32,000 nt of DNA. Origin: Sinorhizobium meliloti. GTDB taxonomy: Bacteria; Pseudomonadota; Alphaproteobacteria; Rhizobiales; Rhizobiaceae. The DNA lies in the NCBI RefSeq assembly GCF_017876815.1, contig NZ_JAGIOS010000002.1, forward strand, positions 360,001 through 392,000, written 5' to 3'. A model generated the notes under the pieces. That model was not told the DNA's origin. It ran no database searches and saw only the letters and a program-made list of their open reading frames with translations. This document shows positions 4,483 to 25,786 of the stretch, in pieces (position 1 is the stretch's first letter; the number at the start of each line of letters is the position of its first letter). Both the position numbers and the translations under genes were made by a program.

Positions 4483-6816
4483 ATGGATAAATCCACCCTC
4501 GAAGTCAGCACCATCACCGGACCGATGCACGCACCGCTCCGTCACGACAGCGCCCACAAGCATGTGGCGGGTACCGCCGATTATATCGATGACATGCCGG
4601 AACCCGCCGGCACCCTGCATGGCGCGCTCGGCCTCACGAACCGGGCGCATGCGGAAATCCTGGAGATGGACCTCGCCGCCGTCGCCGCAGTGCCCGGCGT
4701 CGTCTGCGTGCTCACGGCAAGGGACATGCCGCATTCCAACGACATCAGCCCCACCCATCTGCACGACGAGCCGGTGCTTGCCGACGGGCGCGTGGAGTTC
4801 CATGGCCAGCCGGCCTTCGCGGTCATCGCCGAAACGCGCGACGTCGCCCGCCGCGCCGCGCGGCTCGCCAGGATAACCTATCGTGACTTCCTGCCGGCGA
4901 TCGATGTCGTCGATGCTGTGGCAACCGGCGGCGAGCTGGTGACCCCGCCGCTGACACTCGAGCGCGGCGACGCCGAAGGCGAGCTCGAGCGGGCGCCCCG
5001 CCGCATCCAGGGGCACATGCGAATCGGTGGCCAGGAGCACTTCTATCTGGAAGGCCATATCGCGCTCGCGATTCCCGGCGAGGATGACGAAATGACCGTC
5101 TGGGTATCGACGCAGCATCCGAGCGAAGTCCAGCGTATGGTCGCGCAGGTGCTCGGCGTTCCCTCCAACGCCATCACGGTGAATGTCCGCCGCATGGGCG
5201 GCGGCTTCGGCGGCAAGGAAACGCAGGGCAACCAGTTTGCGGCACTCGCCGCCGTCGCCGCGCGCAAGCTTCGCCGCGCCGTCAAGTTCCGCCCGGACCG
5301 GGACGACGACATGATCGCCACCGGCAAGCGGCACGATTTCCTGGTAAATTACGATGTCGGCTTCGACGAGGAGGGACGCATCCGGGCGGTCCAGGCGAAT
5401 TATGCCGCGCGATGCGGTTTCTCCGCCGATCTCTCCGGCCCGGTCACCGACCGCGCCCTTTTCCATGCGGACAATGCCTACTTCTATCCGCATGTGAAGC
5501 TCACCTCGCAACCGCTTAAGACCAATACGGTTTCCAACACCGCCTTTCGCGGCTTCGGCGGGCCGCAGGGCATGCTCGGCGGCGAGCGGATCATCGAGGA
5601 GATCGCTTACGCGCTCGGGAAGGACCCGCTCGAAATCCGCAAGCTGAACTTCTATGGCGACCCGCATTCCGGCCGCAACGTCACGCCCTATCACCAGAAG
5701 ATCGAAGACAACATCATCCGCCGGATCGTCGATGAGCTGGAAGCGAGCGCCGATTATCAGGCGCGCCGGGCGGCGATTATCGAATTCAACAGATCGAGCC
5801 GGGTTATCCGCAAGGGGATTGCATTGACGCCGGTGAAATTCGGCATCTCCTTCACCCTCACACATCTGAACCAGGCCGGCGCCCTCGTCCACATCTACAC
5901 GGACGGCTCGGTTCACCTCAACCACGGCGGCACCGAGATGGGCCAGGGCGTCTATACGAAAGTGGCGCAGGTCCTTGCAGACAGTTTCCAGATCGACATC
6001 GACCGGGTGAAAATAACCGCGACGACGACCGGCAAGGTGCCGAATACGTCTGCGACAGCCGCCTCCTCCGGCTCCGACCTCAACGGCATGGCCGCCTTCG
6101 ATGCCGCGCGTCAGATCAAGGAGCGGCTCGTCGCCTTTGCGGCCGAGCGTTGGCAGACGACGGCCGAAAACGTCACCTTCGTGGCCAATCATGTCCGTAT
6201 CGGCGACGAGCTCGTTCCCTTTGCGCAGTTCGTGCAGGAGGCCTACGGTGCACGTGTCCAGCTCTCCGCCGCCGGCTTCTATGCAACGCCTGGCATCCAC
6301 TGGGACCGGGCGGCCGGCCGCGGCACGCCCTTCTACTACTTTGCCTATGGCGCGGCCGTTTCCGAGGTCTCGATCGATACGCTGACAGGCGAATACCTGG
6401 TCGATCGCGTCGACGTGCTGCACGACGTCGGCCGTTCCCTCAACCCGGCGATCGATCTCGGCCAGATCGAGGGCGGCTTCGTTCAGGGCATGGGCTGGCT
6501 CACGACGGAAGAGCTCTGGTGGGATGAGAAGGGGCGCCTGAGGACGCATGCGCCCTCGACCTACAAGATACCCCTTGCCTCGGATCGGCCGAAGATCTTC
6601 AACGTGCGCCTGGCCGAATGGTCGGAAAACGCCGAAGAGACGATCGGCAGATCGAAGGCCGTGGGAGAGCCGCCCCTCATGCTGCCGATTTCGGTGGTCG
6701 AGGCCCTGTCGATGGCCGTCGCCAGCGTCGCCGGCTATCGCGAGTGCCCCCGGCTCGATACCCCGGCAACGCCCGAACGTGTCCTGATGGCGGTGGAACG
6801 GCTTAGAGCTGGATGA
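4483..6816 (+). CDS. xdhB: Xanthine dehydrogenase large, molybdopterin-binding subunit
   Basis: 777 aa. Motifs GGGFGGKETQ, FRGFGGPQG, GTEMGQG and SKAVGEPP of the xanthine/aldehyde oxidase Mo-cofactor family. AGGAGG RBS at 4470-4475. Confidence 0.95.
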   Translation: MDKSTLEVSTITGPMHAPLRHDSAHKHVAGTADYIDDMPEPAGTLHGALGLTNRAHAEILEMDLAAVAAVPGVVCVLTARDMPHSNDISPTHLHDEPVLADGRVEFHGQPAFAVIAETRDVARRAARLARITYRDFLPAIDVVDAVATGGELVTPPLTLERGDAEGELERAPRRIQGHMRIGGQEHFYLEGHIALAIPGEDDEMTVWVSTQHPSEVQRMVAQVLGVPSNAITVNVRRMGGGFGGKETQGNQFAALAAVAARKLRRAVKFRPDRDDDMIATGKRHDFLVNYDVGFDEEGRIRAVQANYAARCGFSADLSGPVTDRALFHADNAYFYPHVKLTSQPLKTNTVSNTAFRGFGGPQGMLGGERIIEEIAYALGKDPLEIRKLNFYGDPHSGRNVTPYHQKIEDNIIRRIVDELEASADYQARRAAIIEFNRSSRVIRKGIALTPVKFGISFTLTHLNQAGALVHIYTDGSVHLNHGGTEMGQGVYTKVAQVLADSFQIDIDRVKITATTTGKVPNTSATAASSGSDLNGMAAFDAARQIKERLVAFAAERWQTTAENVTFVANHVRIGDELVPFAQFVQEAYGARVQLSAAGFYATPGIHWDRAAGRGTPFYYFAYGAAVSEVSIDTLTGEYLVDRVDVLHDVGRSLNPAIDLGQIEGGFVQGMGWLTTEELWWDEKGRLRTHAPSTYKIPLASDRPKIFNVRLAEWSENAEETIGRSKAVGEPPLMLPISVVEALSMAVASVAGYRECPRLDTPATPERVLMAVERLRAG

Positions 6817-7048
6817 GGAAAAGTGTGAGCGGTTTTCCGCCCGCATCCGGGCAAGAGCCCGTTGAGGACGGCAATCTCTCCTCACTCTCATCTCTGTGCT
6901 CGTCACGAAGATGAGAGCAGCGCTGCGTCTGCGGCGCGGGAGGAGTTCTTTTAGCCCAAGGACTTGGTCTGGCTGGATCCCTGTGACGAGCACAGGGATG
7001 AGGAGATCAAACAAGCCACGGCGGGTATCCCGAATCTCAATAGGCCTT
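6803..7048. repeat. Mosaic intergenic repeat block: A motif (6803-6848) plus a 172-bp two-hairpin unit (6877-7048)
   Basis: A motif TTAGAGCTGGATGAGGAAAAGTGTGAGCGGTTTTCCGCCCGCATCC recurs at 25741-25786. Unit 6877-7048 recurs at 25572-25742, with a 65-nt identical core (6953-7017 = 25647-25711). Hairpins at 6886-6916 (imperfect) and ATCCCTGTG-ACGAG-CACAGGGAT at 6977-6999 (perfect). Confidence 0.85.
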
Positions 7049-11036: not shown

Positions 11037-12173
11037 ATGACGCAGATTCTCGAAATACGGGACCTGAAGGCCCTGGCCAGACGGCGCGTGCCGAAGCTTT
11101 TCTTCGATTATGCGGACAGCGGCGCATGGACGGAGGGAACCTACCGCGCCAACGAGGAGGATTTCGCCGGGATCAAGCTGCGCCAGCGGGTGCTGGTCGA
11201 CATGTCCGACCGGTCGCTCGAAACGACGATGATCGGACAGAAGGTCTCGATGCCGGTCGCGCTCGCCCCCACCGGCCTGACGGGCATGCAGCATGCCGAC
11301 GGCGAGATGCTGGCGGCTCAGGCGGCCGAGGCGTTCGGCGTCCCGTTCACGCTCTCGACCATGAGCATCTGCTCGATCGAGGACGTCGCCTCGGTGACGA
11401 CGAAGCCGTTTTGGTTCCAGCTCTATGTCATGCGCGAGCGCCAGTTCGTGCTCGATCTGATCGACCGGGCCAAGGCCGCGAAGTGTTCCGCGCTCGTCCT
11501 GACGCTCGACCTGCAGATCCTCGGCCAGCGCCATAAGGACCTTCGCAACGGCCTGTCCGCGCCGCCGCGACTGACGCCGAAACACCTCTGGATGATGGCG
11601 ACGCGGCCCGGCTGGTGCATGAAGATGCTCGGCACCAACCGCCGCACCTTCCGCAACATCGTCGGCCACGCCAAGAGCGTCGCCGACCTCTCCTCGCTTC
11701 AGGCCTGGACGAACGAGCAGTTCGACCCGCAGCTTTCCTGGAAGGACGTCGAGTGGATCAAGGAGCGCTGGGGCGGTCCGCTGATCCTCAAGGGCATTCT
11801 CGATCCGGAAGACGCAAAAATGGCGGCGAAGACCGGCGCCGACGCAATCATCGTCTCGAACCACGGCGGCCGCCAGCTCGACGGCGCGCATTCCTCGATC
11901 AGCATGCTGCCGCGCATCGTTGAGGCCGTCGGCGACCAGATCGAGGTACACCTCGACGGCGGCATTCGTTCCGGCCAGGACGTCCTGAAGGCGATCGCGC
12001 TCGGTGCGAAAGGCACCTATATCGGCCGCCCCTTCCTCTACGGCCTCGGCGCGCTCGGCAAGGAAGGCGTGACACTCGCGCTCGACATCATCCGCAAGGA
12101 GATGGACACGACCATGGCGCTCTGCGGCAAACGCCGCATCACCGAGGTCGGCCGCGACATCATCGCCGAGTAG
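11037..12173 (+). CDS. lldD: FMN-dependent alpha-hydroxy-acid dehydrogenase (L-lactate dehydrogenase [cytochrome]-like)
   Basis: 378 aa. Motifs [41 protein letters not shown] and [18 protein letters not shown], typical of the glycolate oxidase/LldD family. Confidence 0.9.
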   Translation: MTQILEIRDLKALARRRVPKLFFDYADSGAWTEGTYRANEEDFAGIKLRQRVLVDMSDRSLETTMIGQKVSMPVALAPTGLTGMQHADGEMLAAQAAEAFGVPFTLSTMSICSIEDVASVTTKPFWFQLYVMRERQFVLDLIDRAKAAKCSALVLTLDLQILGQRHKDLRNGLSAPPRLTPKHLWMMATRPGWCMKMLGTNRRTFRNIVGHAKSVADLSSLQAWTNEQFDPQLSWKDVEWIKERWGGPLILKGILDPEDAKMAAKTGADAIIVSNHGGRQLDGAHSSISMLPRIVEAVGDQIEVHLDGGIRSGQDVLKAIALGAKGTYIGRPFLYGLGALGKEGVTLALDIIRKEMDTTMALCGKRRITEVGRDIIAE

Positions 12174-12251
12174 CAGGCAGGAAGCGTGTAGCGGTTTTCC
12201 ATCGGAAGTGCGTAGCTTCAAAGACTTAGAGCAGAACCGCACGTTCAGCAA
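11775..12251 (+). repeat. Left copy of a ~0.48-kb direct repeat (3' 400 nt of lldD plus 78 nt downstream)
   Basis: Read directly. It aligns with 20818-21299 in the same orientation with roughly ten point differences. It includes the downstream element GTGTAGCGGTTTTCC..AAAGACTTAGAGCAGAAC. Confidence 0.9.
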
Positions 12252-12325
12252 ACGGGCAACATCATCAGAGAGCCTATGTCACCTGCCTTGACCTCGGCGA
12301 AGCCGGAGCCCCCTTCACCCGGGGC
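12252..12325 (+). pseudogene. Fragment of an NDH-2-like gene (paralogous to 24946-25018)
   Basis: ACGGGCAACATCATCAGAGAGCCTATGTCACCTGCCTTGACCTCGGCGAAGCCGGAGCCCCCTTCACCCGGGGC versus ACGGCAATATCATCAGAAAGCCTATGTCACCTGCCTTGACCTCGGCGATGCCGGAGCCCTTTTTACCCGGGGC in the intact gene. About 90 percent identity by eye, same orientation, with no start and no continuation. Confidence 0.75.
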
Positions 12326-12418
12326 CGGTCGATGGCGTGACCCTCGAAAATCTCGGGTCCGAGCGCGGTAGCCGGTTACGGGCGATATTGGGCAGAGAGC
12401 CTTGAGAATGGTCGACAC

Positions 12419-13399
12419 TCATGCGTGCTCCAATGCGAATGTCGCTGTTGCCTCGTCGGTGACGAGGACATTGACCAGGCCGGCGCGAAGCACGCCAAGG
12501 ACGACGTTGAATTTTTCGCTACCGGCCGCGATGCCGATAGCCTTTCCACTCGTCTTCAGATCGGAAAGCGAAAGGCCGATCGTGCGGGCATCCAATTCCG
12601 CGTCGACGATCTCGCCATTGACATCGATGAAACGGCCAAGGACATCGCCCACCGCACCTTTTGAAAGAAGCGTCGCCAGTTCGTCCCTCAAAATGTTGCC
12701 CGAGCGGACAAGGACCGATTCTTCGCTCAGGCTTCCGCAAGAAAAAATGAGAATTTGTGCCGAGCGCGCCTTGGTCAGAACATCGGCGACGATCCGGTCG
12801 CGTTCGAGCACCTCACGGGTGACGCGCTGGCCGACAATTGCCGGCACTGGCAGCGGCACAAGGCGGGCACCTGCCTTGCGTGCGAAGATCCCGGCGACAT
12901 CGTTATGATACGTGACGCCGGAAATGGGTGCGACCGTTCCATTGATCTGTACGACCTCGCCGCCATCGCTCCATTGAAGCGGAAGCCAATGGGCAACGGC
13001 GCCCATCGTACGCCCCCAGGAAACGCCCACGGTTGCGCCATTGGATTTGATAGAAGCAATGTACTGGCCGGCGGCTTGAGCGACGGTGTCCAAACTCTGC
13101 GCCTGTTCGCCGTCGCTGGAAACCACGACGGAATCGTTCAGGTTGAAGGTTTGTTGCAAGGCGGTTTCCAGGTCGGGGCGGCGCGGCGAGCGTGGAATGA
13201 TTTCGATGCGCACGATGCCGAGGTCGCGCGCCTCCTGCAGGAGACGGCTAACCTGCCAGCGGTTCAACCCGGTCTCAGCAGCGATTTCCGACTGATTCAG
13301 TTCCTGTTGGTAGGTCATGCGCGCAACCTTGACCATCAGGTGCTCGCGGCTTTCGTCCATCGGCAGGCGATTGCTGACGCGTTCGCTTTCGTCTTTCAT
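12419..13399 (-). CDS. SorC-family (sugar-binding) transcriptional regulator
   Basis: 326 aa. N-terminal HTH SQSEIAAETGLNRWQVSRLLQEARDLGIVRIEI plus a C-terminal SorC/DeoR(Bacillus-type) sugar-phosphate-binding domain. ATGA overlap with the kinase stop at 13396-13399. Confidence 0.85.
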   Translation of the reverse strand: MKDESERVSNRLPMDESREHLMVKVARMTYQQELNQSEIAAETGLNRWQVSRLLQEARDLGIVRIEIIPRSPRRPDLETALQQTFNLNDSVVVSSDGEQAQSLDTVAQAAGQYIASIKSNGATVGVSWGRTMGAVAHWLPLQWSDGGEVVQINGTVAPISGVTYHNDVAGIFARKAGARLVPLPVPAIVGQRVTREVLERDRIVADVLTKARSAQILIFSCGSLSEESVLVRSGNILRDELATLLSKGAVGDVLGRFIDVNGEIVDAELDARTIGLSLSDLKTSGKAIGIAAGSEKFNVVLGVLRAGLVNVLVTDEATATFALEHA

Positions 13400-14925
13400 A
13401 CTCTCTCCGTCCGTGTGCTTTCGACGTTACCGGAAAGCCTATGGAAGACGGGCGTCAGGACATCCGTTGCTTCGCGGTAGTCGGCAAACATAGCGAGATA
13501 TTGTCTGTGACGATTGAAATCAGGCGTTCTTTTCACGACAGGCGCGCGCAACGCATGCGCCGCGGTCGTCAGGTCTGGAAACAGTCCAAGCGCCACCGTA
13601 CAGGCGACGGCGCCGCCATGCAGCGAAAGGTTGTCATCGAGCGCAAGCTCCACGGGCTTACCTATTGCATCGATGGTTGCTTCGAGCCAGAGACGGTTTT
13701 TCATGATGCCGCCAGACATGACGATCCGGTCGATCGCCACCCCTTGCTTTTCCAGATCGAAGACGACATTCGCCGCCCCGAGTGCGACCGCAGTCACAGT
13801 AGCACGGTAGATGCTGGCCCGGTCGTGAGACAGCGACAAACCCAAAAAGGCGCCCCGCAGCCGTGCATCCCGGTAGGGTGTACGGTTGCCCATCCAATAA
13901 TCCAGCGCCAGGAGCCCGGTGGAATCCGGCTCGATTGCGTCAGCGGCCGCGCAAAGTGATCGGAAGCCGGCATCATCAAGCCCGAAGATGGTGTTGCTCA
14001 GCCACTGAAGAATGGAACCAGCCGAGACCTGGCCGCCCTCGATCATTCGCAAGCCGGGCGTCAAGGCGTTGGGGTAAGGACCCCAGACCCCGCGGATATT
14101 ACGCCCGTCATCCGGTACCTGCGTGAGGTGGACATTCGATGTCCCGCCGATGAACAGCATGGAGCCTGGCGTCACCGCGTCGGCACCGAATGTTCCCATA
14201 TGCGCGTCTATGCCACCCTGCACCACGACAGGATTACCCGGAATGCCAAGCGTACGTGCCATCTCGGGAAGCATGGGAGCGACGACGTCCCCGATGTCCA
14301 CAATTCGCTGCGGAAGCTTGGCACCAAGGTCCGGCACGCCGAGCAGAGCATAGAGATCCTCGCAGAATTTGCGGTTCCGGCTATCGTAGTTCCACTTGCA
14401 TGTGGCATTCATCAGAGAGCCGGCCCATACACCGGTTAACCTGTGATTGACGAAATCCAGAGCCTCGCAAATGACTTCCGTGCGCGCCCAGAGGTCCGGC
14501 TTTCGGCGCGCGAACCACATGGCTTTCGGGACCAGCCACTCGACCGCATCCGAACCACCGCTGTCTGCGAGAATGGGGTGGTCCACGGTTTCAGTGAACG
14601 CGGCTTCGTCGGCCGCGCGTGCGTCCATCCAGAGGACGGCAGGGGCAATCGGCTTGCCAGACCGGTCGCAGAGTACAACCGTCGAGGCGAAGGTCGCTAC
14701 ACAAACCGCAGCGATATCGGGCGAACCGGCCTTTGCAACGACATCGGGGACGAGCGAGACGAGCGCGGTCATCCAGTCTTCAGGATTCTGCTCGGCGCGG
14801 TTGGGCGGAAGATGCTGCGTTCTGTAAGTCGCCTCGCCACGCGCAACGATGTGGTTCGTCTGCGTGTCGAAGATCGCTGCCCTCGCGCCGCCGGTTCCAA
14901 AATCCAGACTGAGAACTGCGACCAT
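13396..14925 (-). CDS. FGGY-family carbohydrate kinase (pentulose/polyol kinase-like)
   Basis: 509 aa. Motifs LSLDFGTGGARAAIFD, NPEDWM, GGIDAHMG, FIGGTSNVH, EGGQVSAGSILQWL and MSGGIMKN. It is clearly distinct from the glpK at 172-1665. Confidence 0.85.
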   Translation of the reverse strand: MVAVLSLDFGTGGARAAIFDTQTNHIVARGEATYRTQHLPPNRAEQNPEDWMTALVSLVPDVVAKAGSPDIAAVCVATFASTVVLCDRSGKPIAPAVLWMDARAADEAAFTETVDHPILADSGGSDAVEWLVPKAMWFARRKPDLWARTEVICEALDFVNHRLTGVWAGSLMNATCKWNYDSRNRKFCEDLYALLGVPDLGAKLPQRIVDIGDVVAPMLPEMARTLGIPGNPVVVQGGIDAHMGTFGADAVTPGSMLFIGGTSNVHLTQVPDDGRNIRGVWGPYPNALTPGLRMIEGGQVSAGSILQWLSNTIFGLDDAGFRSLCAAADAIEPDSTGLLALDYWMGNRTPYRDARLRGAFLGLSLSHDRASIYRATVTAVALGAANVVFDLEKQGVAIDRIVMSGGIMKNRLWLEATIDAIGKPVELALDDNLSLHGGAVACTVALGLFPDLTTAAHALRAPVVKRTPDFNRHRQYLAMFADYREATDVLTPVFHRLSGNVESTRTERV

Positions 14926-14967
14926 CCCTAACTTGCCTCCCTGTTTGCCCCACCGTCTCCCGAACGA

Positions 14968-15987
14968 TCAGGGGCGGAACAGCACTTTTGAGAAGTGCAG
15001 GTCCTTCGCCGCGAAGCGCTGAAAGATACCAGGCAGTTCGGCAAGGTCGAGATCATGCGAGATCATGAATTCCCACTTCAGTTCCCCGGTCGCGAATTTT
15101 TGGACGGTTGTCGTCCACTGCGGGCCGGGAAAAGGCGCACCGAAACTGTTCCACGAGCCGTGCAGTGAAACTTCCTGACGCAGGAATCTCTGGAACGTCG
15201 CGTTCGACAGCTTCACATCGGGGACAGGTATCCCGATAAACGTGACATGTCCGCCCGGCGCAGCCAGCATGACGGCAGCGTTGATCGTCGAATCGATACC
15301 GACGGCCTCGATCACAAGATCGGCTCGTTCCTTGTTGTCGGCAAAATCGGCAGACAGGATGCATAGATCGGCGCCCGCCTGACGCGCCAAGGCGAGTTTC
15401 TCTTCCGTGACATCGACGGCGATCACTCTCGAGGCCCCCATGATGCGCATCCACTGGATCGCGAACAGACCGATCGGGCCGCACCCGACGACGGCCCCGG
15501 TCTGGCCGGCCGTTATACCGCCGGCCTTCCAGATGGCATGGAGAGCGATCGAGGCAGGGTCGGTCATGGCGATAGCCCTGGGATCGACGTGCTGCGGTGT
15601 CTTGATGAGATTTTCGACGGGGACGGCGACAAATTCCGCATAAGCGCCGTCGCGGCGGCTACCGAAGTAATCATAGTCGCGGCATCGGGAAAAATTGCCT
15701 GTCTTGCATTCTATGCATTGATTGCACGGCATCAGCGGCGCAATAGCGGTCAGCTCGCCGATTTCCCAGCCTTCGACGTTTTCACCGAGCGCATGGATAT
15801 GGCCGGAAAACTCGTGGCCTGTGATGAGAGGCATCTTCCATGCGCCCTTGACCAGCATGCGGGGCAGATCCGACCCACACACGCCGACGGATGCGACGCG
15901 CAGCAGGACCTCTCCGGGGCCGGCCACCGGCTTTGGCCGCTTTTCAAGCCGTATATCGCCCGGGGCGTGGAGCACGATGGCTCGCAT
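14968..15987 (-). CDS. Zn-dependent medium-chain dehydrogenase, GatD (galactitol-1-phosphate 5-dehydrogenase)/sorbitol dehydrogenase-like
   Basis: Track ORF 14968..16056 trimmed to ATG 15987 (AGGAGA 6 nt upstream; N-terminus MRAIVLHAPGDIRLE). Motifs CGSDLPR, GHEFSG, CNQCIECKTGNFSRCRDYDYFGSRRDGAYAEF, GCGPIG and GSWNSFGAPFPGPQW. Confidence 0.85.
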   Translation of the reverse strand: MRAIVLHAPGDIRLEKRPKPVAGPGEVLLRVASVGVCGSDLPRMLVKGAWKMPLITGHEFSGHIHALGENVEGWEIGELTAIAPLMPCNQCIECKTGNFSRCRDYDYFGSRRDGAYAEFVAVPVENLIKTPQHVDPRAIAMTDPASIALHAIWKAGGITAGQTGAVVGCGPIGLFAIQWMRIMGASRVIAVDVTEEKLALARQAGADLCILSADFADNKERADLVIEAVGIDSTINAAVMLAAPGGHVTFIGIPVPDVKLSNATFQRFLRQEVSLHGSWNSFGAPFPGPQWTTTVQKFATGELKWEFMISHDLDLAELPGIFQRFAAKDLHFSKVLFRP

Positions 15988-16089
15988 GGCGTCTCCTGTT
16001 AGCATCTGCGTCATTTGGTTACCTTTGCTAGGACAGCTGTCGTGACAATTAATCACATGCGGGAATTTTCGCGACGTGGACCGGTCGAA

Positions 16090-16109
16090 GGGCGGCCTTC
16101 ATGCCGCCC
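16090..16109 (-). other. Intra-operon GC hairpin between the permease and dehydrogenase genes
   Basis: GGGCGGC-CTTCAT-GCCGCCC. There is no U-tract on the minus strand. It lies 56 nt after the permease stop and ~100 nt before the dehydrogenase start. Confidence 0.3.
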
Positions 16110-16164
16110 GTCTCATTAAGCTGGGCTCTGTAACTGTTACGTCGTTATCTGCCGGAGAATGATT

Positions 16165-17160
16165 TCATCGCTTCAGAGAGCCGGTGCTGTACTGCAACAG
16201 CATGGCAACGACGATGATCGCTCCCATATAAACCTGCTGGTGATAGCCGGGCACGCCTGCAAGGTTCATGATGTTGGTGATAATTCCCATGACCAAAGCG
16301 CCAAGCAGCGTGTTGATGACGCCGCCCTTCCCGCCCATCAGGCTCGCCCCACCGATGACGACGGCGGCGATCACATTGAGTTCGGCCCCGATGCCGACCT
16401 GAGCAGAGCCGACGCCTGTGCGGCTCGCGGCGATGATACCTGCCAAACCGGCGAGCAAACCGGAGATCACATAGACGGCGACGATATAGCGCGGGACGGC
16501 GATACCGGAGAGTCGGACAGCCTCCTCGTTGGAACCGATTGCCGTAATGACGCGTCCGAACCGGGTGAAGTTGAGGACGACACCGCCGGCGATATAGATT
16601 GCGAACATCAAAATGACTGGTTGGGGAATGCCCAGCACGAAGCCGGAACCGAAACTGCTGAAAGCTGCGCCCGCATCGCTGAGCGGAATTGGTCGCCCCT
16701 CGGAAATGATGAGGGAAAGGCCGCGCGCGACTGCCATCATGGCAAGCGACATGACAAAGGACGGCAGCCTGAGATACGCGATGAAACCGCCCGTTACCAG
16801 GCCGCAGGCAGCGCCGCACAACAAGACAAGAAAAATGGTCGCCCCGGTGCCATAGCCTAACATCGCGCAGAAGTAGCCCGTGAGTACGGAACCCAGGGCC
16901 ATGACCGATCCAACCGAAAGGTCAATGCCGCGCGTCAGGATGACGAACAGCATGCCGACGGCCATGATGCCGGCTGTCGAGGCAACCTGCCGCAATACGT
17001 TGAGGAGGTTGCCGCGAGTGAGAAAACTGTCCGACCACCAGGTCGCTACGGCGACGAGCACGAGAAAGATGGCCAGGGTCCCGAAACGCTGAACGATGGA
17101 GTGATAGTCGACAAAACCCTTCTGTTCCGGCGGCGTCACTGTGTCTGTTGTGTGGGTCAT
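16165..17160 (-). CDS. Sugar ABC transporter permease (RbsC/AraH type)
   Basis: Track ORF 16165..17451 trimmed to ATG 17160, which overlaps the ATPase stop (ATGA at 17157-17160). 331 aa and hydrophobic throughout, with the TRGIDLSVGSVMAL signature. Confidence 0.9.
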   Translation of the reverse strand: MTHTTDTVTPPEQKGFVDYHSIVQRFGTLAIFLVLVAVATWWSDSFLTRGNLLNVLRQVASTAGIMAVGMLFVILTRGIDLSVGSVMALGSVLTGYFCAMLGYGTGATIFLVLLCGAACGLVTGGFIAYLRLPSFVMSLAMMAVARGLSLIISEGRPIPLSDAGAAFSSFGSGFVLGIPQPVILMFAIYIAGGVVLNFTRFGRVITAIGSNEEAVRLSGIAVPRYIVAVYVISGLLAGLAGIIAASRTGVGSAQVGIGAELNVIAAVVIGGASLMGGKGGVINTLLGALVMGIITNIMNLAGVPGYHQQVYMGAIIVVAMLLQYSTGSLKR

Positions 17161-18671
17161 ACCTGGCTGCCTTGGTTGCTCGCTCTGGCTCCGCCCATCA
17201 TCGACAGGCCAAGCAGATTTTCTTCCGAGTAGTTGCTGGGTGTCAGTTCGCCTCGGATCTGCCCCTGGCCCATTGCCAGAACGCGATCGCAAAGACCAAA
17301 GAGTTCCTGATGTTCTGAGGAAATCACCAGAACTGCCTTGCCGTCTTCGGCGAGCTTGTTGATCAGAGCATAGATCTCGGCCTTCGCGCCGACATCGACG
17401 CCGCGTGTGGGTTCGTCCAGAATGATAACGTCGCCACCGGCGTGAAACCATTTCGCCAGCACGACCTTCTGCTGATTGCCGCCCGACAGACTGGAAACCG
17501 GTGCATCGATACTGGAAGCCTTGAGCCGCAAGCTCTTGCCAAGTGCGGTGACGTCGGTGCGCTCCAAGGCTGGCTTGAGGAAGCCCAAGGCATTCACGAC
17601 CGACGACATCCTGGCCATCGTTGCATTGACGCGGATCGGCTTGTCGATGACGACGCCGTGCTCCTTGCGGTCTTCCGGGACGAGCCCGATACCGGCCTTC
17701 ACCGCGTCTCTGGGCGATTTGAGTTTGAGGGCCTTCCCTTTGAGGCTGATCGTGCCGCTGTCCAGCGGATCAGCGCCGAAAATCGCGCGTGCGACTTCCG
17801 TGCGGCCTGATCCGATCAGGCCTCCAAGCCCGACGATCTCGCCGGCGCGGACAGAAAAGCTGACATCGCGAACCATCCGGTCCGCATTGAGTTTTTTCAC
17901 GTTGAGCAGTTCGGCGCCGATGGTGCGCTGCGAGCGCTCCGGGAACATGTTGGCGATTGGCCGGCCGACCATCATGCGAATGATATCGTCGATCTTGACG
18001 TCCGTCGTCGCGACTGTTCCGACCGTCTCCCCATCCTTCATTACTGTCATTCGATCCGCGATATCGAACACTTCATCGAGGCGATGCGAAATATAGACGA
18101 TGCCGACTCCACGATCGCGCAGGCCCCGGATGATCTGGTGCAGTTTCATCGCATCCTGAGCACCGAGCACTGCGGTCGGTTCGTCGAAGACGATGATCTT
18201 GATGTCCTGCGAAAGCGCCTTGGCGATCTCGACCACCTGCTGGTGGGCGACGGACAGGGTGCCGACAAGGCGCCCGGGATCGATATCGAAACCCAGACGG
18301 TCGATCAGCTGTTTTGCACGTCTTCGCAGGCTGAATCGGGAAATAAGGGTCGGTAGCTCTCCAAGAAAAATGTTTTCTGCCACGCTGAGATCAGGGGCAA
18401 GGGCAAGCTCCTGGTGGATCACGACGATGCCAAGTGCGCGTGCGTCTCGAGGATCGCGAAGCTCGGTCCGCTTTCCATTAATGACGACCTCTCCCTGGCT
18501 GGGGATAATCTCGCCGCCCAGAACGCGCATAAGGGTGGATTTTCCAGCACCGTTCTCGCCGAGAAGGGCATGAACCTCCCCCGGCCACACGTCGAAATTC
18601 ACGGACCGAAGCGCGTGAATGCCCCCGAAGGACTTGGAGATTGATTTCAGATTGGCAAGTTCGGTCACCAT
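17157..18671 (-). CDS. Sugar ABC transporter ATP-binding protein (tandem ABC cassettes, RbsA-like)
   Basis: Walker A GENGAGKST and GLIGSGRTE. Signature motifs LSVAHQQ and LSGGNQQK. Walker B IIVFDEP and VIILDEP. Start set to ATG 18671 (AGGAGG upstream); the track start is 18698. Confidence 0.92.
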   Translation of the reverse strand: MVTELANLKSISKSFGGIHALRSVNFDVWPGEVHALLGENGAGKSTLMRVLGGEIIPSQGEVVINGKRTELRDPRDARALGIVVIHQELALAPDLSVAENIFLGELPTLISRFSLRRRAKQLIDRLGFDIDPGRLVGTLSVAHQQVVEIAKALSQDIKIIVFDEPTAVLGAQDAMKLHQIIRGLRDRGVGIVYISHRLDEVFDIADRMTVMKDGETVGTVATTDVKIDDIIRMMVGRPIANMFPERSQRTIGAELLNVKKLNADRMVRDVSFSVRAGEIVGLGGLIGSGRTEVARAIFGADPLDSGTISLKGKALKLKSPRDAVKAGIGLVPEDRKEHGVVIDKPIRVNATMARMSSVVNALGFLKPALERTDVTALGKSLRLKASSIDAPVSSLSGGNQQKVVLAKWFHAGGDVIILDEPTRGVDVGAKAEIYALINKLAEDGKAVLVISSEHQELFGLCDRVLAMGQGQIRGELTPSNYSEENLLGLSMMGGARASNQGSQV

Positions 18672-18758
18672 GGCCCTCCTAACAATGGCTGCAGACAACG
18701 AGGCAGGAGCCCCGTTGTCCAGTCCGCGGCGGCTTTGCAGCCTCCTGGGAGGAGCAGA

Positions 18759-19727
18759 TCAGAAAACGGCGTCGGCGCGATAATATTTGTCGACGTTTTC
18801 TTTGGTGATGACGGCCGGTGTCGTCAGATTGAGCTTCGGGAAGTCGGCTGGCAGTTCGCCGTTGACTGCTTTGAGCCCGATATCGACCGCGGTACGCGCG
18901 ACCAGGTCCGGGTCGTTAAGCCCGGTTGCCCCGTATTTGCCTTCTTTGATCAGTGCCAATGCTTCCTTCTGGCCGTCCGCAGCGGCAAGCGCGAGAACAT
19001 CTGTCTTGCCTTGTGCCTCGAGAGCCTTCATGGCGCCAAGCACCATCGAGTCGTTTTCGCCAAGAACGACATTGGCGTCCGGATGCGCGGTCAGGAGGTC
19101 TTCCATCGCGGCGAGGCCACCTTCATGGGCCCAGCCACCCCAGCCCTGGCCCACGACTTCGAAACTGACCTTGCCGTCGTTGACCAATTGGCCTTCGACA
19201 AGGCCCTTGAAAACGCCGAGGCGCCGATCGCGGCCCACTTCGTTACCCTTGTCGCCCGATAGAAGGATGATCTTCATCGGCTTGCCCTTCATGGCATTGG
19301 CAAGCCATTGGCCGACAAGCACACCGTTCTGGTCATTGGAAGAGCGAACCTGGGTGACGACGTTGGCCTTCGTGTTGATAGAGGAGTCCATGACGACGAC
19401 CTTCACGCCAGCGGCCGTTGCAGCGTCTGCGGCCGCGACAAGGCCTTCCGGATCGCGCGGGTTGAGGATCAGCAGATTAACGCCGCGCGCCACCATGTCT
19501 TCCACGTCCGCGATCTGTTTGGTCATGTCGTTCTGGCCGTCGGCGCTGGTAACTTCACAACCGGCCTTTTTGGCCTGATCTTCCGCTGCCGCCACCTGAG
19601 CGGCGAAATAAGGTGCGCCAAGCGTGTACATAGCGATGCCAACCTTGCAGTCGGCGGCGTTTGCGATGCCAGCGGAAGCGACGCTCGCCATGAGGGCCAA
19701 CATGCATCCTGCGATTGATTTCTTCAT
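18759..19727 (-). CDS. Periplasmic sugar-binding protein (RbsB-like, type I PBP)
   Basis: 322 aa. Signal peptide MKKSIAGCMLALMASVASAGIANA. GGAGGAG RBS 7 nt upstream of ATG 19727. Confidence 0.9.
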   Translation of the reverse strand: MKKSIAGCMLALMASVASAGIANAADCKVGIAMYTLGAPYFAAQVAAAEDQAKKAGCEVTSADGQNDMTKQIADVEDMVARGVNLLILNPRDPEGLVAAADAATAAGVKVVVMDSSINTKANVVTQVRSSNDQNGVLVGQWLANAMKGKPMKIILLSGDKGNEVGRDRRLGVFKGLVEGQLVNDGKVSFEVVGQGWGGWAHEGGLAAMEDLLTAHPDANVVLGENDSMVLGAMKALEAQGKTDVLALAAADGQKEALALIKEGKYGATGLNDPDLVARTAVDIGLKAVNGELPADFPKLNLTTPAVITKENVDKYYRADAVF

Positions 19728-19970
19728 GGGTAACTCCTCCGATTTCCATGAGACAGGAAGCGGTTTCGGCTTCCATTCCGTAGTTTAATTACAAGCTTCG
19801 AGATTGGTCAAGCAAAATTAACCCCATTTTTGATACTATACCACATAAGTGACAAATCGTGCGCTGCAACAAGGCGATAATGCCCCACGTTTCGCCTGCG
19901 GCAGGCGCTGGGATTTGCGCTCGCAATTTTATTTGGTAGTTTTGCTACGAAATTAGAGAACAGGAGAAAA
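19728..19970. promoter_or_regulatory. AT-rich divergent control region between the ABC/catabolic operon and the cupin PGI gene
   Basis: 243 bp, visibly AT-richer than its surroundings. Small palindromes are present, e.g. ATTTGCG-CT-CGCAATT near 19912-19927 and GGAAGC..GCTTCC at 19756-19774. Presumed SorC operator(s); none proven. Confidence 0.4.
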
Positions 19971-20600
19971 GTGTTGATATTGTTTGAGCCGGGAGTCTGT
20001 CAGGTCGATGTTGCAACAGGCCAGTTGAAGGGTGCGACGAACCGCTATGTCAAAACCTTCCGGGATCTTGCAGGGCTGTATCAGGACGAGAGCGCATATC
20101 AAGCGCTTATCGCAACCCGCGGTGATGATGTCGCCTATGAGGTTACGGACTACAAGCCATCGGCCAATGGGGGTGACATCATCATCGGCGTCACGCGCAT
20201 GGAGCCTGGGAAGATCGGTGACGAGTATTTCATGACGCGGGGCCACATCCATGCGAGGCCCAATCGGCCGGAAATGTATTATGGCGAGGCTGGCGTAGGC
20301 GTGATGCTGCTGGAATCGCCCTATGGCGAGATTCGCACGATCGAGATACGCGCGAGGACTATGTGCTATGTGCCACCCTTTTGGATCCATCGTTCTGTCA
20401 ACGTCGGCCTGGAACCACTTGTAATGACATTTTCCTATCCCGCGGATGCCGGTCAGGACTACGACGTCATTGCGAAGGCGGGGGGAATGCGGAGCCGTAT
20501 TGTCGATGACGGGAACGGTGGATGGACCACAGTCGATAACGCCGGTTATTCAGGGAGACACCCATCGCTTGTAGAAGACATCATGTCGAGAGTTGACTGA
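19971..20600 (+). CDS. Cupin-type (archaeal-type) glucose-6-phosphate isomerase
   Basis: 209 aa. EPGKIGDEYFMTRGHIHARPNRPEMYYG and CYVPPFWIHRSVNVGLEPLVMTFSYPADAGQDYDVIAKAGG align closely with Pyrococcus cPGI as I recall it (YPGKVGKEFFFTKGHFHAKLDRAEVYVA; VYVPPYWAHRTVNIGDEPFIFLAIYPADAGHDYGTIAEKGF). The His/His/Glu/His metal ligands are present. Start is GTG 19971 or TTG 19974, after GGAG at 19963-19966. Confidence 0.9.
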   Translation: MLILFEPGVCQVDVATGQLKGATNRYVKTFRDLAGLYQDESAYQALIATRGDDVAYEVTDYKPSANGGDIIIGVTRMEPGKIGDEYFMTRGHIHARPNRPEMYYGEAGVGVMLLESPYGEIRTIEIRARTMCYVPPFWIHRSVNVGLEPLVMTFSYPADAGQDYDVIAKAGGMRSRIVDDGNGGWTTVDNAGYSGRHPSLVEDIMSRVD

Positions 20601-20638
20601 AGACTGTCGGGGATCCTGTCTGGTGTTCCCCGTCACCG

Positions 20639-20668
20639 CTGGTTTGACCGCCTCATCCCTGTGCTCGT
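20639..20668 (-). repeat. Truncated copy of the two-hairpin repeat unit, cut in the hairpin loop
   Basis: CTGGTTTGACCGCCTCATCCCTGTGCTCGT is the reverse complement of 6986-7015 at 27 of 30 positions. The second hairpin arm (CACAGGGAT) is missing, and the break at 20668/20669 abuts the putative IS end. Confidence 0.7.
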
Positions 20669-20817
20669 TGTCTAGCCCGGACACATAACTGACAGGTGTT
20701 CGGGGAGATGGCTGACACGTTCATACTGGCATGGATTGGCTTCGAGAGGAGGTTGTCCATGCCGTGGAAAGAGGTGCCGGTTATGGGAGAGAGGCAGGAA
20801 TTTGTGCGGCTGGCGCT
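20669..20817 (+). mobile_element. Remnant of the 5' end of an IS element (IS481-family-like transposase start)
   Basis: GAGAGGAGG RBS followed by ATG 20759, encoding [20 protein letters not shown]. From memory this matches the conserved N-terminus of IS481-family/integrase-core transposases in rhizobia. The reading frame is cut at 20817-20819 by the lldD fragment, leaving a 22-codon stub. TGTCTAGCCCGGACAC at 20669 is a plausible terminal repeat. Confidence 0.4.
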
Positions 20818-21217
20818 GGTCCGCTGATCCTCAAGGGCATTCTCGATCCGGAAGACGCAAAAATGGCGGCGAAGAGCGGCGCCGACGCAATCATCGTCTC
20901 GAACCACGGCGGCCGCCAGCTCGACGGGCGCGCATTCCTCGATCAGCATGCTGCCGCGCATCGTCGGGGCCGTCGGCGACCAGATCGAGGTACACCTCGA
21001 CGGCGGCATTCGTTCCGGCCAGGACGTCCTGAAGGCGATCGCGCTCGGTGCGAAAGGCACCTATATCGGCCGCCCCTTCCTCTACGGCCTCGGCGCGCTC
21101 GGCAACTAAGGCGTGACACTCGCGCTCGACATCATCCGCAAGGAGATGGACACGACCATGGCGCTCTGCGGCAAACGCCGCATCACCGAGGTCGGCCGCG
21201 ACATCATTGCGGATTAG
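20818..21217 (+). pseudogene. Truncated, frameshifted copy of the lldD 3' end
   Basis: About 98 percent identical by eye to 11775-12173. There is an extra G in GACGGGCGCG (20926-20928) and an in-phase TAA at 21107-21109 (GGC AAG GAA -> GGC AAC TAA). The 5' ~740 nt are absent. Track ORF 20731..21315 reads [37 protein letters not shown] and then goes out of frame. Confidence 0.92.
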
Positions 21218-21299
21218 AGCACTCAAGGAAAGCGTGTAGCGGTTTTCCGTCGGAAGTGCGTAGGTTCAAAGACTTAGAGCAGAACGGCACGTTCGGCAA
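20818..21299 (+). repeat. Right copy of the ~0.48-kb direct repeat
   Basis: Aligns with 11775-12251, including the downstream GTGTAGCGGTTTTCC..AAAGACTTAGAGCAGAAC element. Homology ends at GTTC(A/G)GCAA. Confidence 0.9.
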
Positions 21300-21494
21300 T
21301 TTGGCGAGAGGGTGAACATCCCTCGCAATAGGCCGTCTAGTGCTTGCCGCGAGTGCCGCATCGCGGGACGCTGAAGCCCGCGTGATCGAGAACGAGGTCC
21401 AATCGCTAAGGCAACCTATCCTGGAGAATAGATTTCCCCCCTCCGGGAGTTCTTATATTTTCCCTGCGTCACAACGCGCGAAAAACCAAAGCAC

Positions 21495-21516
21495 CGCGAC
21501 ATTGCTCGCGACATTG
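21495..21516. promoter_or_regulatory. Tandem direct repeat CGCGACATTG-CT-CGCGACATTG upstream of the AraC gene
   Basis: Two perfect 10-mers (21495-21504 and 21507-21516) with a 12-bp period, 115-220 nt upstream of the candidate AraC starts. AraC-type regulators typically bind direct repeats. Confidence 0.3.
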
Positions 21517-21631
21517 GGGATCTCATGGGTAGCAGGACTGACAGTGTCGGCCATCACACGCGCATCCCCAATGATCCTGCGATTGTTGGCGGGGTCATAT
21601 GTGAGCAGCGTCAGTCAACGAGCGCGCAATT

Positions 21632-22582
21632 ATGAGCGCGCCTTGCTCCTGCAATTCCCGCGAGAGCGAGGCAGATGATTCAGCCGACGTGAGCGTAGAC
21701 GGCGTGCGGCTTGCCGATCACACACCTGCAACCGAGATGTCGCGCGTTCTGCGGACAGCACCTATTCATCTCGCGGCGGATCCCTCCGGCGGTGCAATTG
21801 CTCATTGGAACCATGGCCCCCTGCATGACGTCGTCGAGCCCATGACCGACCACGTCGTCATGGCTTACAACGGCACGATACAGCGCATGGAACGACGGTC
21901 CGGAAGGTCGGTCGAGAGTGGCACGTTTCGTCGTGGGGTTGTGATAATAATCCCGGCTGGATCGAGCTCCCGCTGGGATATTCCGAAGCCGGTTGATGTC
22001 GTTCAGCTCTATCTCCCTCACACGACACTGACACGCATTGCCGAGGCAACCGATACTTTCACGCCGACCGATCTTCTGGAGCGAACGGCGCATCCGGACC
22101 CCATTACATCTCGGTTGCTCCTGAGCGCAGCCGATGTCCTGGAAGGCAATAGGGCACTGGATACACTTTTCAGGCAACAGCTGACTGATCTTCTGGCCAC
22201 GCGCCTGCTGGCTGCACATACGGGCAAGGCGCCGAGCTATCAACCGGCGGTCGGCGGCCTGGCACCGAATGTGCTGCGCCGGGCCATCGAACGATTGCGG
22301 TCCGACGCCGATGCGGACGTCTCCCTCGCCGCCCTCGCAGCTGATTCCGGGCTGTCACGTTTTCATTTCTGTCGCGCTTTCAAGGAAAGCACGGGGCTCT
22401 CACCGCACAACTGGCTGCGTCAATATCGGCTTGAGCAAGCCATAAACATGCTGCGCAATCCTGCAAATTCGGTCGCCTCGGTCGCAGCCTCTCTCGGTTA
22501 TAACTCGCAAACAGCATTTGCAGCTGCGTTCCGCAAATTGACCGGCGAAACACCGACCGAGTGGCGGCGCAGCCACGGCTGA
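21632..22582 (+). CDS. AraC-family transcriptional regulator
   Basis: C-terminal dual HTH: SLAALAADSGLSRFHFCRAFKESTGLSPHNWLRQYRLEQA...LGYNSQTAFAAAFRKLTGETPTEWR. The start is uncertain (ATG 21632 is the longest; ATG 21737 is also possible) and neither has a strong RBS. Confidence 0.85.
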   Translation: MSAPCSCNSRESEADDSADVSVDGVRLADHTPATEMSRVLRTAPIHLAADPSGGAIAHWNHGPLHDVVEPMTDHVVMAYNGTIQRMERRSGRSVESGTFRRGVVIIIPAGSSSRWDIPKPVDVVQLYLPHTTLTRIAEATDTFTPTDLLERTAHPDPITSRLLLSAADVLEGNRALDTLFRQQLTDLLATRLLAAHTGKAPSYQPAVGGLAPNVLRRAIERLRSDADADVSLAALAADSGLSRFHFCRAFKESTGLSPHNWLRQYRLEQAINMLRNPANSVASVAASLGYNSQTAFAAAFRKLTGETPTEWRRSHG

Positions 22583-23953: not shown

Positions 23954-25159
23954 ATGAGACTTGTGATTGTAGGCGCCGGTTTCGCCGGCATGTACGCCGC
24001 ACTTTCCGCAGCCCGTCTGCGCGATATCGAAGGCGTCTCGCCCGAAGAGCTTGAAATCGCGCTGGTATCCCCGGAACCGACGCTTGTCATCCGCCCACGG
24101 CTTTACGAGCCGAACCCCGAGACCCTGACGGCGCCTTTGCAGAATGTATTTGACGCCGTCGATATCGCCTACGTGCAGGGTAGTGTTGACGCGATTGATA
24201 CGAAGGCCTGCACCGTAGAGGTCGTCAATGCCGAGGGTGAACGAAAGACTCTTCAGTATCATCGCCTTGTGCTCGCCACCGGCAGCCGGTTGTTCCGTCC
24301 GAATATTCCGGGCCTCGCCGAATACGCCTTCAGCATCGACAATGTCGATGACGCCATTGCCCTCGATCGCCATCTCCACGAGCTTGCGAAGATGCCGGCC
24401 TCGGCCGCGCGTGACACCATCGTCGTTGCCGGCGCCGGCTTCACAGGTATCGAGGCGGCGACCGAGATGCCTTCGCGGCTGCGGACCCTATTCGACAAAA
24501 CCGCCAATCCGCGCGTCATCATCATCGACCGCAGCAGCGCGGTCGCCCCTGACATGGGTGAAGGCGCTCGCCCGATCATTGAGGACGCGCTGCGCAGGCT
24601 CGGCGTAGAGACGCGGCTCAACGCCGGAGTTTCATCGCTCGACAAGTCCGGAGTCACGCTGAGTACTGGCGAGCATATCGAAACCATGACGGTGATCTGG
24701 GCGGCAGGCATGCGGGCCAATCCGGTTACCACTAAAATTCCCGGCGAACGTGACAAGTTCGACCGGCTGCTGGTCGACGGCTGCCTGCGTGTACCGTCCG
24801 TGCCAGGCGTCTTCGCCACCGGGGATGCCGCGCGCGCTGCTTGCGACGACTGCGGCAACTACGCACTGATGTCGTGCCAGCACGCCACACGCATGGGCGC
24901 CTTCGCGGGCAACAATGCCGCTGCCGAACTGTTAGGCGTACCGCCACGGCAATATCATCAGAAAGCCTATGTCACCTGCCTTGACCTCGGCGATGCCGGA
25001 GCCCTTTTTACCCGGGGCTGGGATCGCGAGGTGGAGATGGTCGGCGAAAAAGCGAAGGCGACGAAGCAGGAGATCAACACTGTCTGGATCTATCCGCCGG
25101 AGCCCGAGCGTGCCGCGGCACTGGCTTCCGCCGATCCGGAGCGTGTGACGGACCTCTGA
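23954..25159 (+). CDS. NAD(P)/FAD-dependent oxidoreductase, type II NADH dehydrogenase (NDH-2)-like
   Basis: Track ORF 23795..25159 trimmed to ATG 23954 (N-terminus MRLVIVGAGFAGMYAA). A second dinucleotide loop, VVAGAGFTGIEAA, and the motif ATGDAA. Confidence 0.85.
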   Translation: MRLVIVGAGFAGMYAALSAARLRDIEGVSPEELEIALVSPEPTLVIRPRLYEPNPETLTAPLQNVFDAVDIAYVQGSVDAIDTKACTVEVVNAEGERKTLQYHRLVLATGSRLFRPNIPGLAEYAFSIDNVDDAIALDRHLHELAKMPASAARDTIVVAGAGFTGIEAATEMPSRLRTLFDKTANPRVIIIDRSSAVAPDMGEGARPIIEDALRRLGVETRLNAGVSSLDKSGVTLSTGEHIETMTVIWAAGMRANPVTTKIPGERDKFDRLLVDGCLRVPSVPGVFATGDAARAACDDCGNYALMSCQHATRMGAFAGNNAAAELLGVPPRQYHQKAYVTCLDLGDAGALFTRGWDREVEMVGEKAKATKQEINTVWIYPPEPERAAALASADPERVTDL

Positions 25160-25571: not shown

Positions 25572-25786
25572 TCTCCTCGCCCTCATCTCTGTGCTTGTCA
25601 CAGAGATCCAGCGGCGCCGCGTGGGCGGCGCGGAGAACGTTCTTTCAGCCCAAGGACTTGGTCTGGCTGGATCCCTGTGACGAGCACAGGGATGAGGAGA
25701 TCAAACAAGCCGCGGCAGGAAATCCAAATCTCAACAGGCCTTAGAGCGGGATGAGGAAAGGTGTGTGCGGTCTTCCGCCCGCATCC
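25572..25786. repeat. Second mosaic repeat block: 171-bp two-hairpin unit (25572-25742) followed by the A motif (25741-25786)
   Basis: Same components as 6803-7048 but with the A motif on the other side of the unit. Perfect hairpins ATCTCTGTG-CTTGT-CACAGAGAT (25585-25607) and ATCCCTGTG-ACGAG-CACAGGGAT (25671-25693). Confidence 0.85.

Follow-up and report, generated by a model that had tools for sequence, protein, structure and literature searches.

The stretch of DNA analysed here, referred to as the window, is 32 000 nt of Sinorhizobium meliloti (NZ_JAGIOS010000002.1, positions 360 001 to 392 000) and represents the SMb20850-57 region of the pSymB chromid. It is 99.9% identical to SM11 and R28, and the region is present at nearly full length in 43 pSymB records. 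It contains lldD, which encodes a member of the FMN-dependent L-lactate dehydrogenase family, a cassette of catabolic genes downstream of lldD and, beyond the cassette, a second but incomplete copy of the lldD 3' end. An earlier reading of the window from its letters alone (the original prediction) had drawn attention to this carbohydrate cassette bracketed by direct repeats.

The cassette and the repeats that flank it

The last part of lldD and the sequence immediately beyond its stop codon recur in the same orientation to the right of the cassette (Table 1), and the two copies are 95.85% identical over 482 aligned columns in a BLAST comparison. A repeat search of the window resolved them into three co-linear blocks, 11775–11884/20818–20927 (99%, offset 9043), 11883–12173/20927–21217 (98%, offset 9044) and 12182–12251/21230–21299 (94%, offset 9048). 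The left boundary of the repeat coincides with the first base of lldD codon 247, so that the right copy is without 738 nt of the gene. There are approximately 20 differences between the copies: 8 substitutions and one inserted base in the coding part, 6 substitutions and 4 gap columns in the linker that follows the lldD stop codon (8 nt in the left copy), which is heavily altered, and 4 substitutions in the 70 nt tail, here named E70 (E70L on the left and E70R on the right). In the right copy found in the window, 5 of the 8 substitutions alter an amino acid or create a stop, an extra G (GGG at 20926–20928) causes a frameshift, and codon 343 (21107–21109) has changed from GAA to TAA. The right copy, here designated lldD', is a pseudogene fragment. 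The left lldD is intact, and its 378 aa product has a full-length match to Pfam FMN_dh and scores 448 bits against the NCBIfam L-lactate dehydrogenase model PRK11197 (cut-off 376). As an identical layout was found in more than 30 independently finished S. meliloti genomes, it is neither a chance occurrence nor an assembly artefact. The position of the repeats, the loss of approximately 740 nt from the 5' end of the right copy, its single base insertion and in-phase TAA, and its status as a dead fragment had all been read correctly in the original prediction, and the estimate of about ten differences was too low.

The genes between the repeats encode a SorC/DeoR-type regulator, an FGGY kinase, a Zn-dehydrogenase, a CUT2-type ABC transporter and a cupin-type glucose-6-phosphate isomerase (PGI), and this Pfam result matches the gene list originally predicted. 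With regard to the substrate of the operon, no NCBIfam match above the equivalog cut-off was obtained for the operon proteins. The ABC transporter of the SMb20851-56 operon corresponds to SMb20854-56 (PMC2597717), and SMb20857 is pgiA2 (PMC10433430). The literature search returned only such locus tags, and the duplication at lldD was nowhere described. In PLSDB, orthologues of the cassette PGI with at least 90% identity were found only in S. meliloti, and the next-best relatives, with 76% amino acid identity, are in Rhizobium leguminosarum-type loci that include more genes. The pgiA2 of Rm1021 gave a two-piece match to the protein encoded in the window, which implies a frameshift in the reference strain.

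Table 1. Positions of features in the window
Feature	Position	Strand	Basis
lldD, FMN-dependent L-lactate dehydrogenase family; last gene of the conserved xdh-LysR-puuD-guaD-lldD block	11037–12173	+	Pfam, NCBIfam, synteny
Left repeat copy: lldD codons 247–378 and stop, 8 nt linker, E70L (12182–12251)	11775–12251	+	Repeat search, BLAST
D5 patch, 77 nt, copied from inside FAD/NAD oxidoreductase gene; left junction with E70 edge	12252–12328	+	Repeat search, alignment
deoC-like aldolase remnant, first ~31 codons; truncated left end of imported locus	12329–12418	-	Alignment to start of DeoC-family gene in contig L099
Operon, equivalent to SMb20851-56	12419–19727	-	Pfam
SorC/DeoR-type regulator	12419–13399	-	Pfam
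FGGY kinase	13396–14925	-	Pfam
Zn-dehydrogenase	14968–15987	-	Pfam
ABC permease	16165–17160	-	Pfam
ABC ATPase	17157–18671	-	Pfam
ABC binding protein	18759–19727	-	Pfam
pgiA2 (SMb20857), cupin-type glucose-6-phosphate isomerase family; divergent from operon	19971–20600	+	Pfam PF06560; PMC10433430
Left half of REP/RIME-like palindromic repeat (family of 6916–7048 and 25610–25742); insertion target of the insertion sequence	20612–20668	+	Inverted matches; alignment with other copies and with sequence upstream of full ISRm20
149 bp left-end stub of ISRm20-like IS481-family element	20669–20817	+	Terminal repeat TGTCTAGCCCGG; transposase ATG at 20759, ~19.7 codons
Right repeat copy: lldD' (20818–21217), linker (21218–21229), E70R (21230–21299)	20818–21299	+	Repeat search, alignment
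Native spacer and AraC-family regulator; directly after lldD-E70 in empty-site genomes	21300–22582	+	Empty-site comparison
D5 source, inside oxidoreductase gene (23954–25159)	~24945–25021	+	Repeat search, alignment

The closest relative of the cassette was found in a JGI metagenome contig (L099; Ga0494678_002961), which is 90.4% identical over 8.3 kb, from window position 12326 to 20611. Homology starts at 12326 and stops at 20611–20617. In L099 the operon runs on into deoC and an aldehyde dehydrogenase gene, and different genes follow the PGI gene. As the operon continues in L099, the cassette in the window is a truncated fragment of a larger locus, cut inside the deoC-like aldolase gene, and is not the self-contained sugar module that had been envisaged. 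A donor-site scar for the cassette was sought in Sinorhizobium replicons, and no match above approximately 75% was found.

Between E70L and the aldolase remnant lies a 77 nt patch, here named D5, which was copied from a segment within the oxidoreductase gene; in the empty-site arrangement this source lies 3.7 kb downstream. D5 differs from the source gene by 4 substitutions and one indel that are common to all strains, and the sequence occurs in only two places per pSymB record. At most 1 nt is in common at the joint of E70 with D5.

At the right end, the cassette runs into half of a REP-type palindromic repeat and the stub of an insertion sequence (IS). The stub is 96% identical to full copies of an ISRm20-like element in Sinorhizobium sp. 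C101 and M103, and 84% identical to one that carries the annotation 'IS481-like element ISRm20 family transposase'. Full ISRm20-like copies are approximately 1.29 kb and are found at the centre of REP-type palindromes. The joint between the IS stub and lldD codon 247 has 2 nt of microhomology (GG only). As the IS is cut in its interior, it was not joined to lldD' by transposition, and the joint is illegitimate. Neither a second IS copy nor a short target duplication was found at the cassette. With only a single truncated IS left end, a left boundary made up of E70, D5 and the truncated deoC (deoC'), and a duplication of 477 bp in place of a short one, a composite or otherwise IS-mediated transposon was rejected. 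The absence of an integrase gene had been noted previously and stands; the same statement extended to recombinases, and there it overlooked the stub of the IS481-family transposase gene. The D5 patch and the truncation of the cassette were likewise missed.

The junction resembles IS-associated remnants and REP/RIME insertions of the S. meliloti megaplasmids in having an ISRm20-like element in the centre of a REP-type palindrome, and in the further IS256-family insertions found at the same junction in other strains. It differs from them in that only a 149 bp stub is present and the IS, which has neither a partner copy nor a short target duplication, did not mobilize the cassette itself. Insertion of an ISRm20-like element at the centre of a REP palindrome was seen here and at three other loci. 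Elsewhere in the window, composite REP/RIME-like repeats at 6802–7048 (after xdhB) and 25572–25786 (after the oxidoreductase gene) are 87–91% identical, and the segment at 20612–20668 is a partial inverted copy of them.

Empty sites and variation among strains

Synteny of the xdhB-LysR-puuD-guaD-lldD block is kept in most of 80 Rhizobiaceae species. When LldD was used to survey 80 other Rhizobiaceae species, no empty site was found, and homology to the window always ended at the lldD stop codon. The 3' end of lldD (12173/12174) is a synteny break, with downstream content differing between species. The GC content at third codon positions (GC3) also steps down at the lldD stop, from 0.75–0.89 in the conserved block to 0.63–0.74 downstream. 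The GC3 of the cassette equals that of the right flank, and the compositional comparison proposed in the original prediction is uninformative on insertion.

When, after that survey, E70 was used as the query, empty sites were found in S. meliloti B401 and Sinorhizobium sp. K101, where lldD-E70 is followed by the spacer and then the AraC, hydrolase, oxidoreductase and MscS genes. A query spanning the junction returned exactly five empty-site records: B401, K101, C101, M103 and LMB1 pA. The last four are approximately 95–96% identical and form a sister group, and the cassette is present in approximately 44 of approximately 45 S. meliloti pSymB records. The empty sites in B401 and the sister group mark the cassette, on comparison of the sequences, as a derived insertion; the order lldD, spacer and AraC gene in all five records is the one that the original prediction expected of an empty site. 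As the junctions are common to all cassette-bearing strains, they have a single origin. Plasmid pA of LMB1 (NZ_CP141213.1) is labelled S. meliloti, yet it shares approximately 96% identity and, like K101, C101 and M103, has the empty site.

Two forms of the right lldD' copy, SM11-type (as in the window) and Rm1021-type, were examined. Both have the S. meliloti state at 7/7 sites in the 400 nt coding part that separate K101 and USDA 6670 from S. meliloti; thus, the right copy is native and did not come from another species. The two forms have no derived change in common. The SM11-type copy has 7 private substitutions and the frameshift, and 5 of its 8 differences from the left copy are non-synonymous or create a stop. 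The Rm1021-type copy has 3 changes, 2 of them non-synonymous, with no frameshift and no stop, and is annotated in one genome as a 161 aa protein.

Exchange between the copies, which had been predicted to be possible, has left traces in several strains. Gene conversion is evident in BL225C, where two private variants, 11882T and 12008C, occur in both copies and two Rm1021-type changes have been lost from the right one. The SM11-type E70R is a mosaic of left and right states. The right flank of B401 is nested in the Rm1021-type clade (0.22–0.25%) and its left flank is the most divergent of all (0.55–0.9%). In the 738 nt of lldD that precede the repeat, B401 differs from every cassette-bearing strain at 6 positions (4 private), of which the last is 11772; inside the repeat there is no such difference. 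B401 also has 12185G, found otherwise only in the left copy of BL225C, and right-copy states 16 nt later. This pattern of flanks and variants maps the haplotype switch to the repeat. In the simplest reading, a left-type lldD and a right copy underwent unequal exchange, which probably removed the cassette once, in B401. Alternatively, an old empty allele may have survived there and exchanged sequence with a right copy at a later time.

Decay of the right copy has taken its own course in each of several lineages. GR4-type strains have lost 615 bp (20612–21226), including the REP half, the IS stub and lldD', with E70R kept; the deletion was read directly in GR4 and KH35c, and four further records have the same BLAST pattern. 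In RCAM1750 (L005, position 14370), a 346 bp deletion corresponding to window positions 20373–20718 has taken away the last (3') third of pgiA2 together with the beginning of the IS stub. In BIM B-442D (L006, 17863–19159), a 1.3 kb ISRm3-like element of the IS256 family, encoding a 406 aa transposase, has inserted in the right lldD' at window position 20866 with an 8–9 bp target duplication. ISRm3 was also seen in the region in CP140883 and CP140921.

Two further observations concern the right side of the cassette. RCAM1115 (L097) is a recombinant, in which the left flank and cassette are SM11-type (0.00–0.10%) and the right lldD copy and right flank are Rm1021-type (0.08–0.19%), placing the breakpoint between the cassette end and the right copy. 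In the spacer between lldD and the AraC gene, at 21340/21341, an approximately 103 nt palindromic RIME/MITE-like element (CTGCATGTTTCCTTTAATCC...AAACATGCAG...) is present in Rm1021, GR4, KH35c, RCAM1750 and B401 (L002 at 24343–24445, and L004, L005, L007 and L094), and is absent from the window, which is SM11-type.

Origin of the arrangement

In our estimation there is roughly an even chance that the arrangement is the scar of a single old illegitimate duplicative insertion on pSymB, resembling a template switch and involving no recombinase, that was followed by conversion, decay and probable loss. The ancestral order would have been lldD, E70, the spacer and then the AraC, hydrolase and oxidoreductase genes. 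The insert would be an 8.3 kb piece of a larger sugar or polyol catabolic locus, with one end cut within the deoC-like aldolase gene and the other in a REP-type repeat that already held the ISRm20-like element. At the left joint, the right edge of E70 would have been connected to the 77 nt oxidoreductase patch and this in turn to deoC', and at the right joint the interior of the IS (at approximately nt 149) would have been connected to lldD codon 247 at the 2 nt microhomology. Re-entry 477 nt upstream of the point of departure would have duplicated lldD'-E70. Either replication template switching or microhomology-mediated repair would fit this pattern of joints. Subsequently, the left copy would have kept lldD whole, and the right copy would have become a pseudogene fragment that exchanged sequence with the left by gene conversion and decayed separately in each lineage, via the frameshift and stop in the SM11 type, the 615 bp deletion in the GR4 type, the IS256-family insertion and the 346 bp deletion. 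The cassette would then probably have been removed once by unequal exchange, leading to the B401 site.

Template switching is expected to leave 0–5 nt of microhomology at the joints in the absence of long homology, and a templated patch from a nearby locus; the joints here have 0–2 nt, and the 77 nt D5 at one of them matches a source 3.7 kb away. Fork stalling and template switching (FoSTeS), microhomology-mediated break-induced replication (MMBIR) and homology-facilitated illegitimate recombination are models that were defined mainly in other systems. Rearrangements of the FoSTeS/MMBIR type share with the lldD locus the 0–2 nt of microhomology, the short templated patch from a few kb away, the duplication of sequence at re-entry and the lack of a dedicated recombinase. 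They differ in that the mechanism here is deduced from an old scar, in which the divergence of D5 and E70L exceeds what would be expected of one recent event.

This divergence is one of several points that weigh against a single event. D5 and E70L have 6–8 changes common to all strains in approximately 147 nt, 2–3 of them specific to E70L, and the 400 nt of lldD' has none common to the SM11 and Rm1021 types. The left joint looks several-fold older than the radiation of the strains and lldD' looks young. Gene conversion from left to right would explain the mismatch, but lldD' could also have been added later and have a separate origin. No intermediate allele was found, whether with a full IS adjoining the cassette, with a further complete lldD or with the cassette placed elsewhere, and the number of events is deduced. 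The joint of the IS with lldD' could perhaps be a secondary deletion and not a primary junction. A source genome for the cassette was not found among Sinorhizobium replicons or in PLSDB. Finally, the GR4-type deletion ends within a few nt of the edge shared by the cassette and the REP repeat and of the left E70 edge, which is odd for a random deletion. These coincident breakpoints prompted the opposite polarity, in which the GR4 type is ancestral and the stub and lldD' were added later. It was rejected as the main reading because local trees rooted with L099 or K101, built from the nearest sites to the left and to the right of the junction, have the form (SM11-type,(Rm1021-type,GR4-type)). As the stub and lldD' are found in the SM11 and Rm1021 types, they are ancestral and were lost in the GR4 type.

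Two other histories are live rivals, although each seems unlikely. In the first, a larger segmental duplication would have left a second lldD of full length (and perhaps additional sequence) on the right side of the cassette, along with a full ISRm20, and a deletion from within the IS to codon 247 would have followed. In a staged variant, to which the same low likelihood applies, lldD' would have been copied beside E70R later, by gap repair primed from E70. The internal truncation of the IS, which is not the product of an IS-mediated event, requires at least one plain deletion or illegitimate joint, and later deletions are common at this junction (the GR4 type and RCAM1750). A staged history would also fit the different apparent ages of E70L/D5 and lldD'. 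However, none of approximately 45 strains retains a longer right copy or a full IS at the site, and the copies enclose DNA that is foreign to the locus, which is incompatible with a simple tandem duplication. The simple form of segmental duplication offered in the original prediction was rejected on this ground, as the empty sites lack the 8.3 kb in question, which is most closely related to a metagenome contig whose flanks differ.

The second history, about which we are equally doubtful, is Campbell-type integration, in which one homologous crossover at the resident lldD 3' end would have brought in a circle carrying lldD'-E70, D5, the cassette and the IS stub. The topology is an exact match, with one complete and one 5'-truncated gene in direct orientation flanking the insert, and the repeats are proficient in recombination. 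The greater age or divergence of E70L and D5 relative to lldD' would follow from an incoming copy that was not identical and a crossover close to the lldD stop codon. However, the circle must already have held both illegitimate joints (IS interior with lldD', and E70 with D5), which adds steps, and PLSDB yielded no circle, plasmid or donor context of this kind. In addition, both copies are of the S. meliloti type throughout their lldD' part. Laboratory single-crossover integrants likewise have intact and 5'-truncated copies in direct orientation around the insert, and are revertible by recombination, but at the lldD locus there is no plasmid backbone and there are no replication genes, and the ends are an IS interior, a 77 nt patch and a truncated deoC.

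The other model in the original prediction, a site-specific integrative island that entered the 3' end of lldD and supplied a replacement 3' end, is hardly credible. The locus does resemble genomic islands that enter, and restore, the 3' end of a tRNA, tmRNA or protein gene, in that direct repeats of the target 3' end lie on either side of accessory genes and relatives have empty sites. Unlike in those islands, there is no integrase, excisionase or conjugation gene, with the open reading frames of seven metabolic, transport and regulatory genes filling the cassette (12419–20600); the repeat is 477–482 bp, some ten times the typical attachment site (att), and not a short att core; no tRNA gene is present; the right copy adjoins the interior of an IS, leaving an IS stub at the junction; the ends of the cassette are truncated genes (deoC' on the left); and the duplicated segment is native, with both copies S. 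meliloti-type at the 7 diagnostic sites. The lack of integrase and tRNA genes, of a further IS copy and of a short target duplication rules out both an integrative island and a composite transposon.

E70 belongs to a low-copy Sinorhizobium intergenic repeat family, with approximately four places per pSymB and partial copies (80–90%) on pSymA and other replicons. Searches of Rfam, a scan for terminators and promoters, and folding of E70 gave no signal. The left cassette joint, the point at which the spacer diverges in the sister species, the indel-rich linker and both ends of the GR4-type deletion all lie a few bases from an edge of E70 or a REP repeat. We regard it as improbable that small intergenic repeats of the E70 and REP types, and not the lldD fragment, are the active players, acting as preferred sites of breakage or strand exchange owing, for example, to a repeat-associated nuclease or stalled forks. 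If so, they would constitute an integrase-free system of cassette gain and loss on rhizobial chromids.

The lldD locus is a rearrangement scar with an IS remnant, ordinary in kind, in a well-annotated region of a model rhizobium, and it opens no new biological question. For annotation, the 161 aa 'alpha-hydroxy-acid oxidizing protein' of some genomes should be corrected to a gene remnant, and the SMb20851-57 cluster is a truncated locus without its aldolase, which matters when a substrate is assigned to it. The locus provides a base-by-base picture of a chromid acquiring a catabolic cassette in the absence of dedicated mobile-element machinery, and shows how repeats of a gene fragment continue to reshape a locus through conversion, decay and probable loss.

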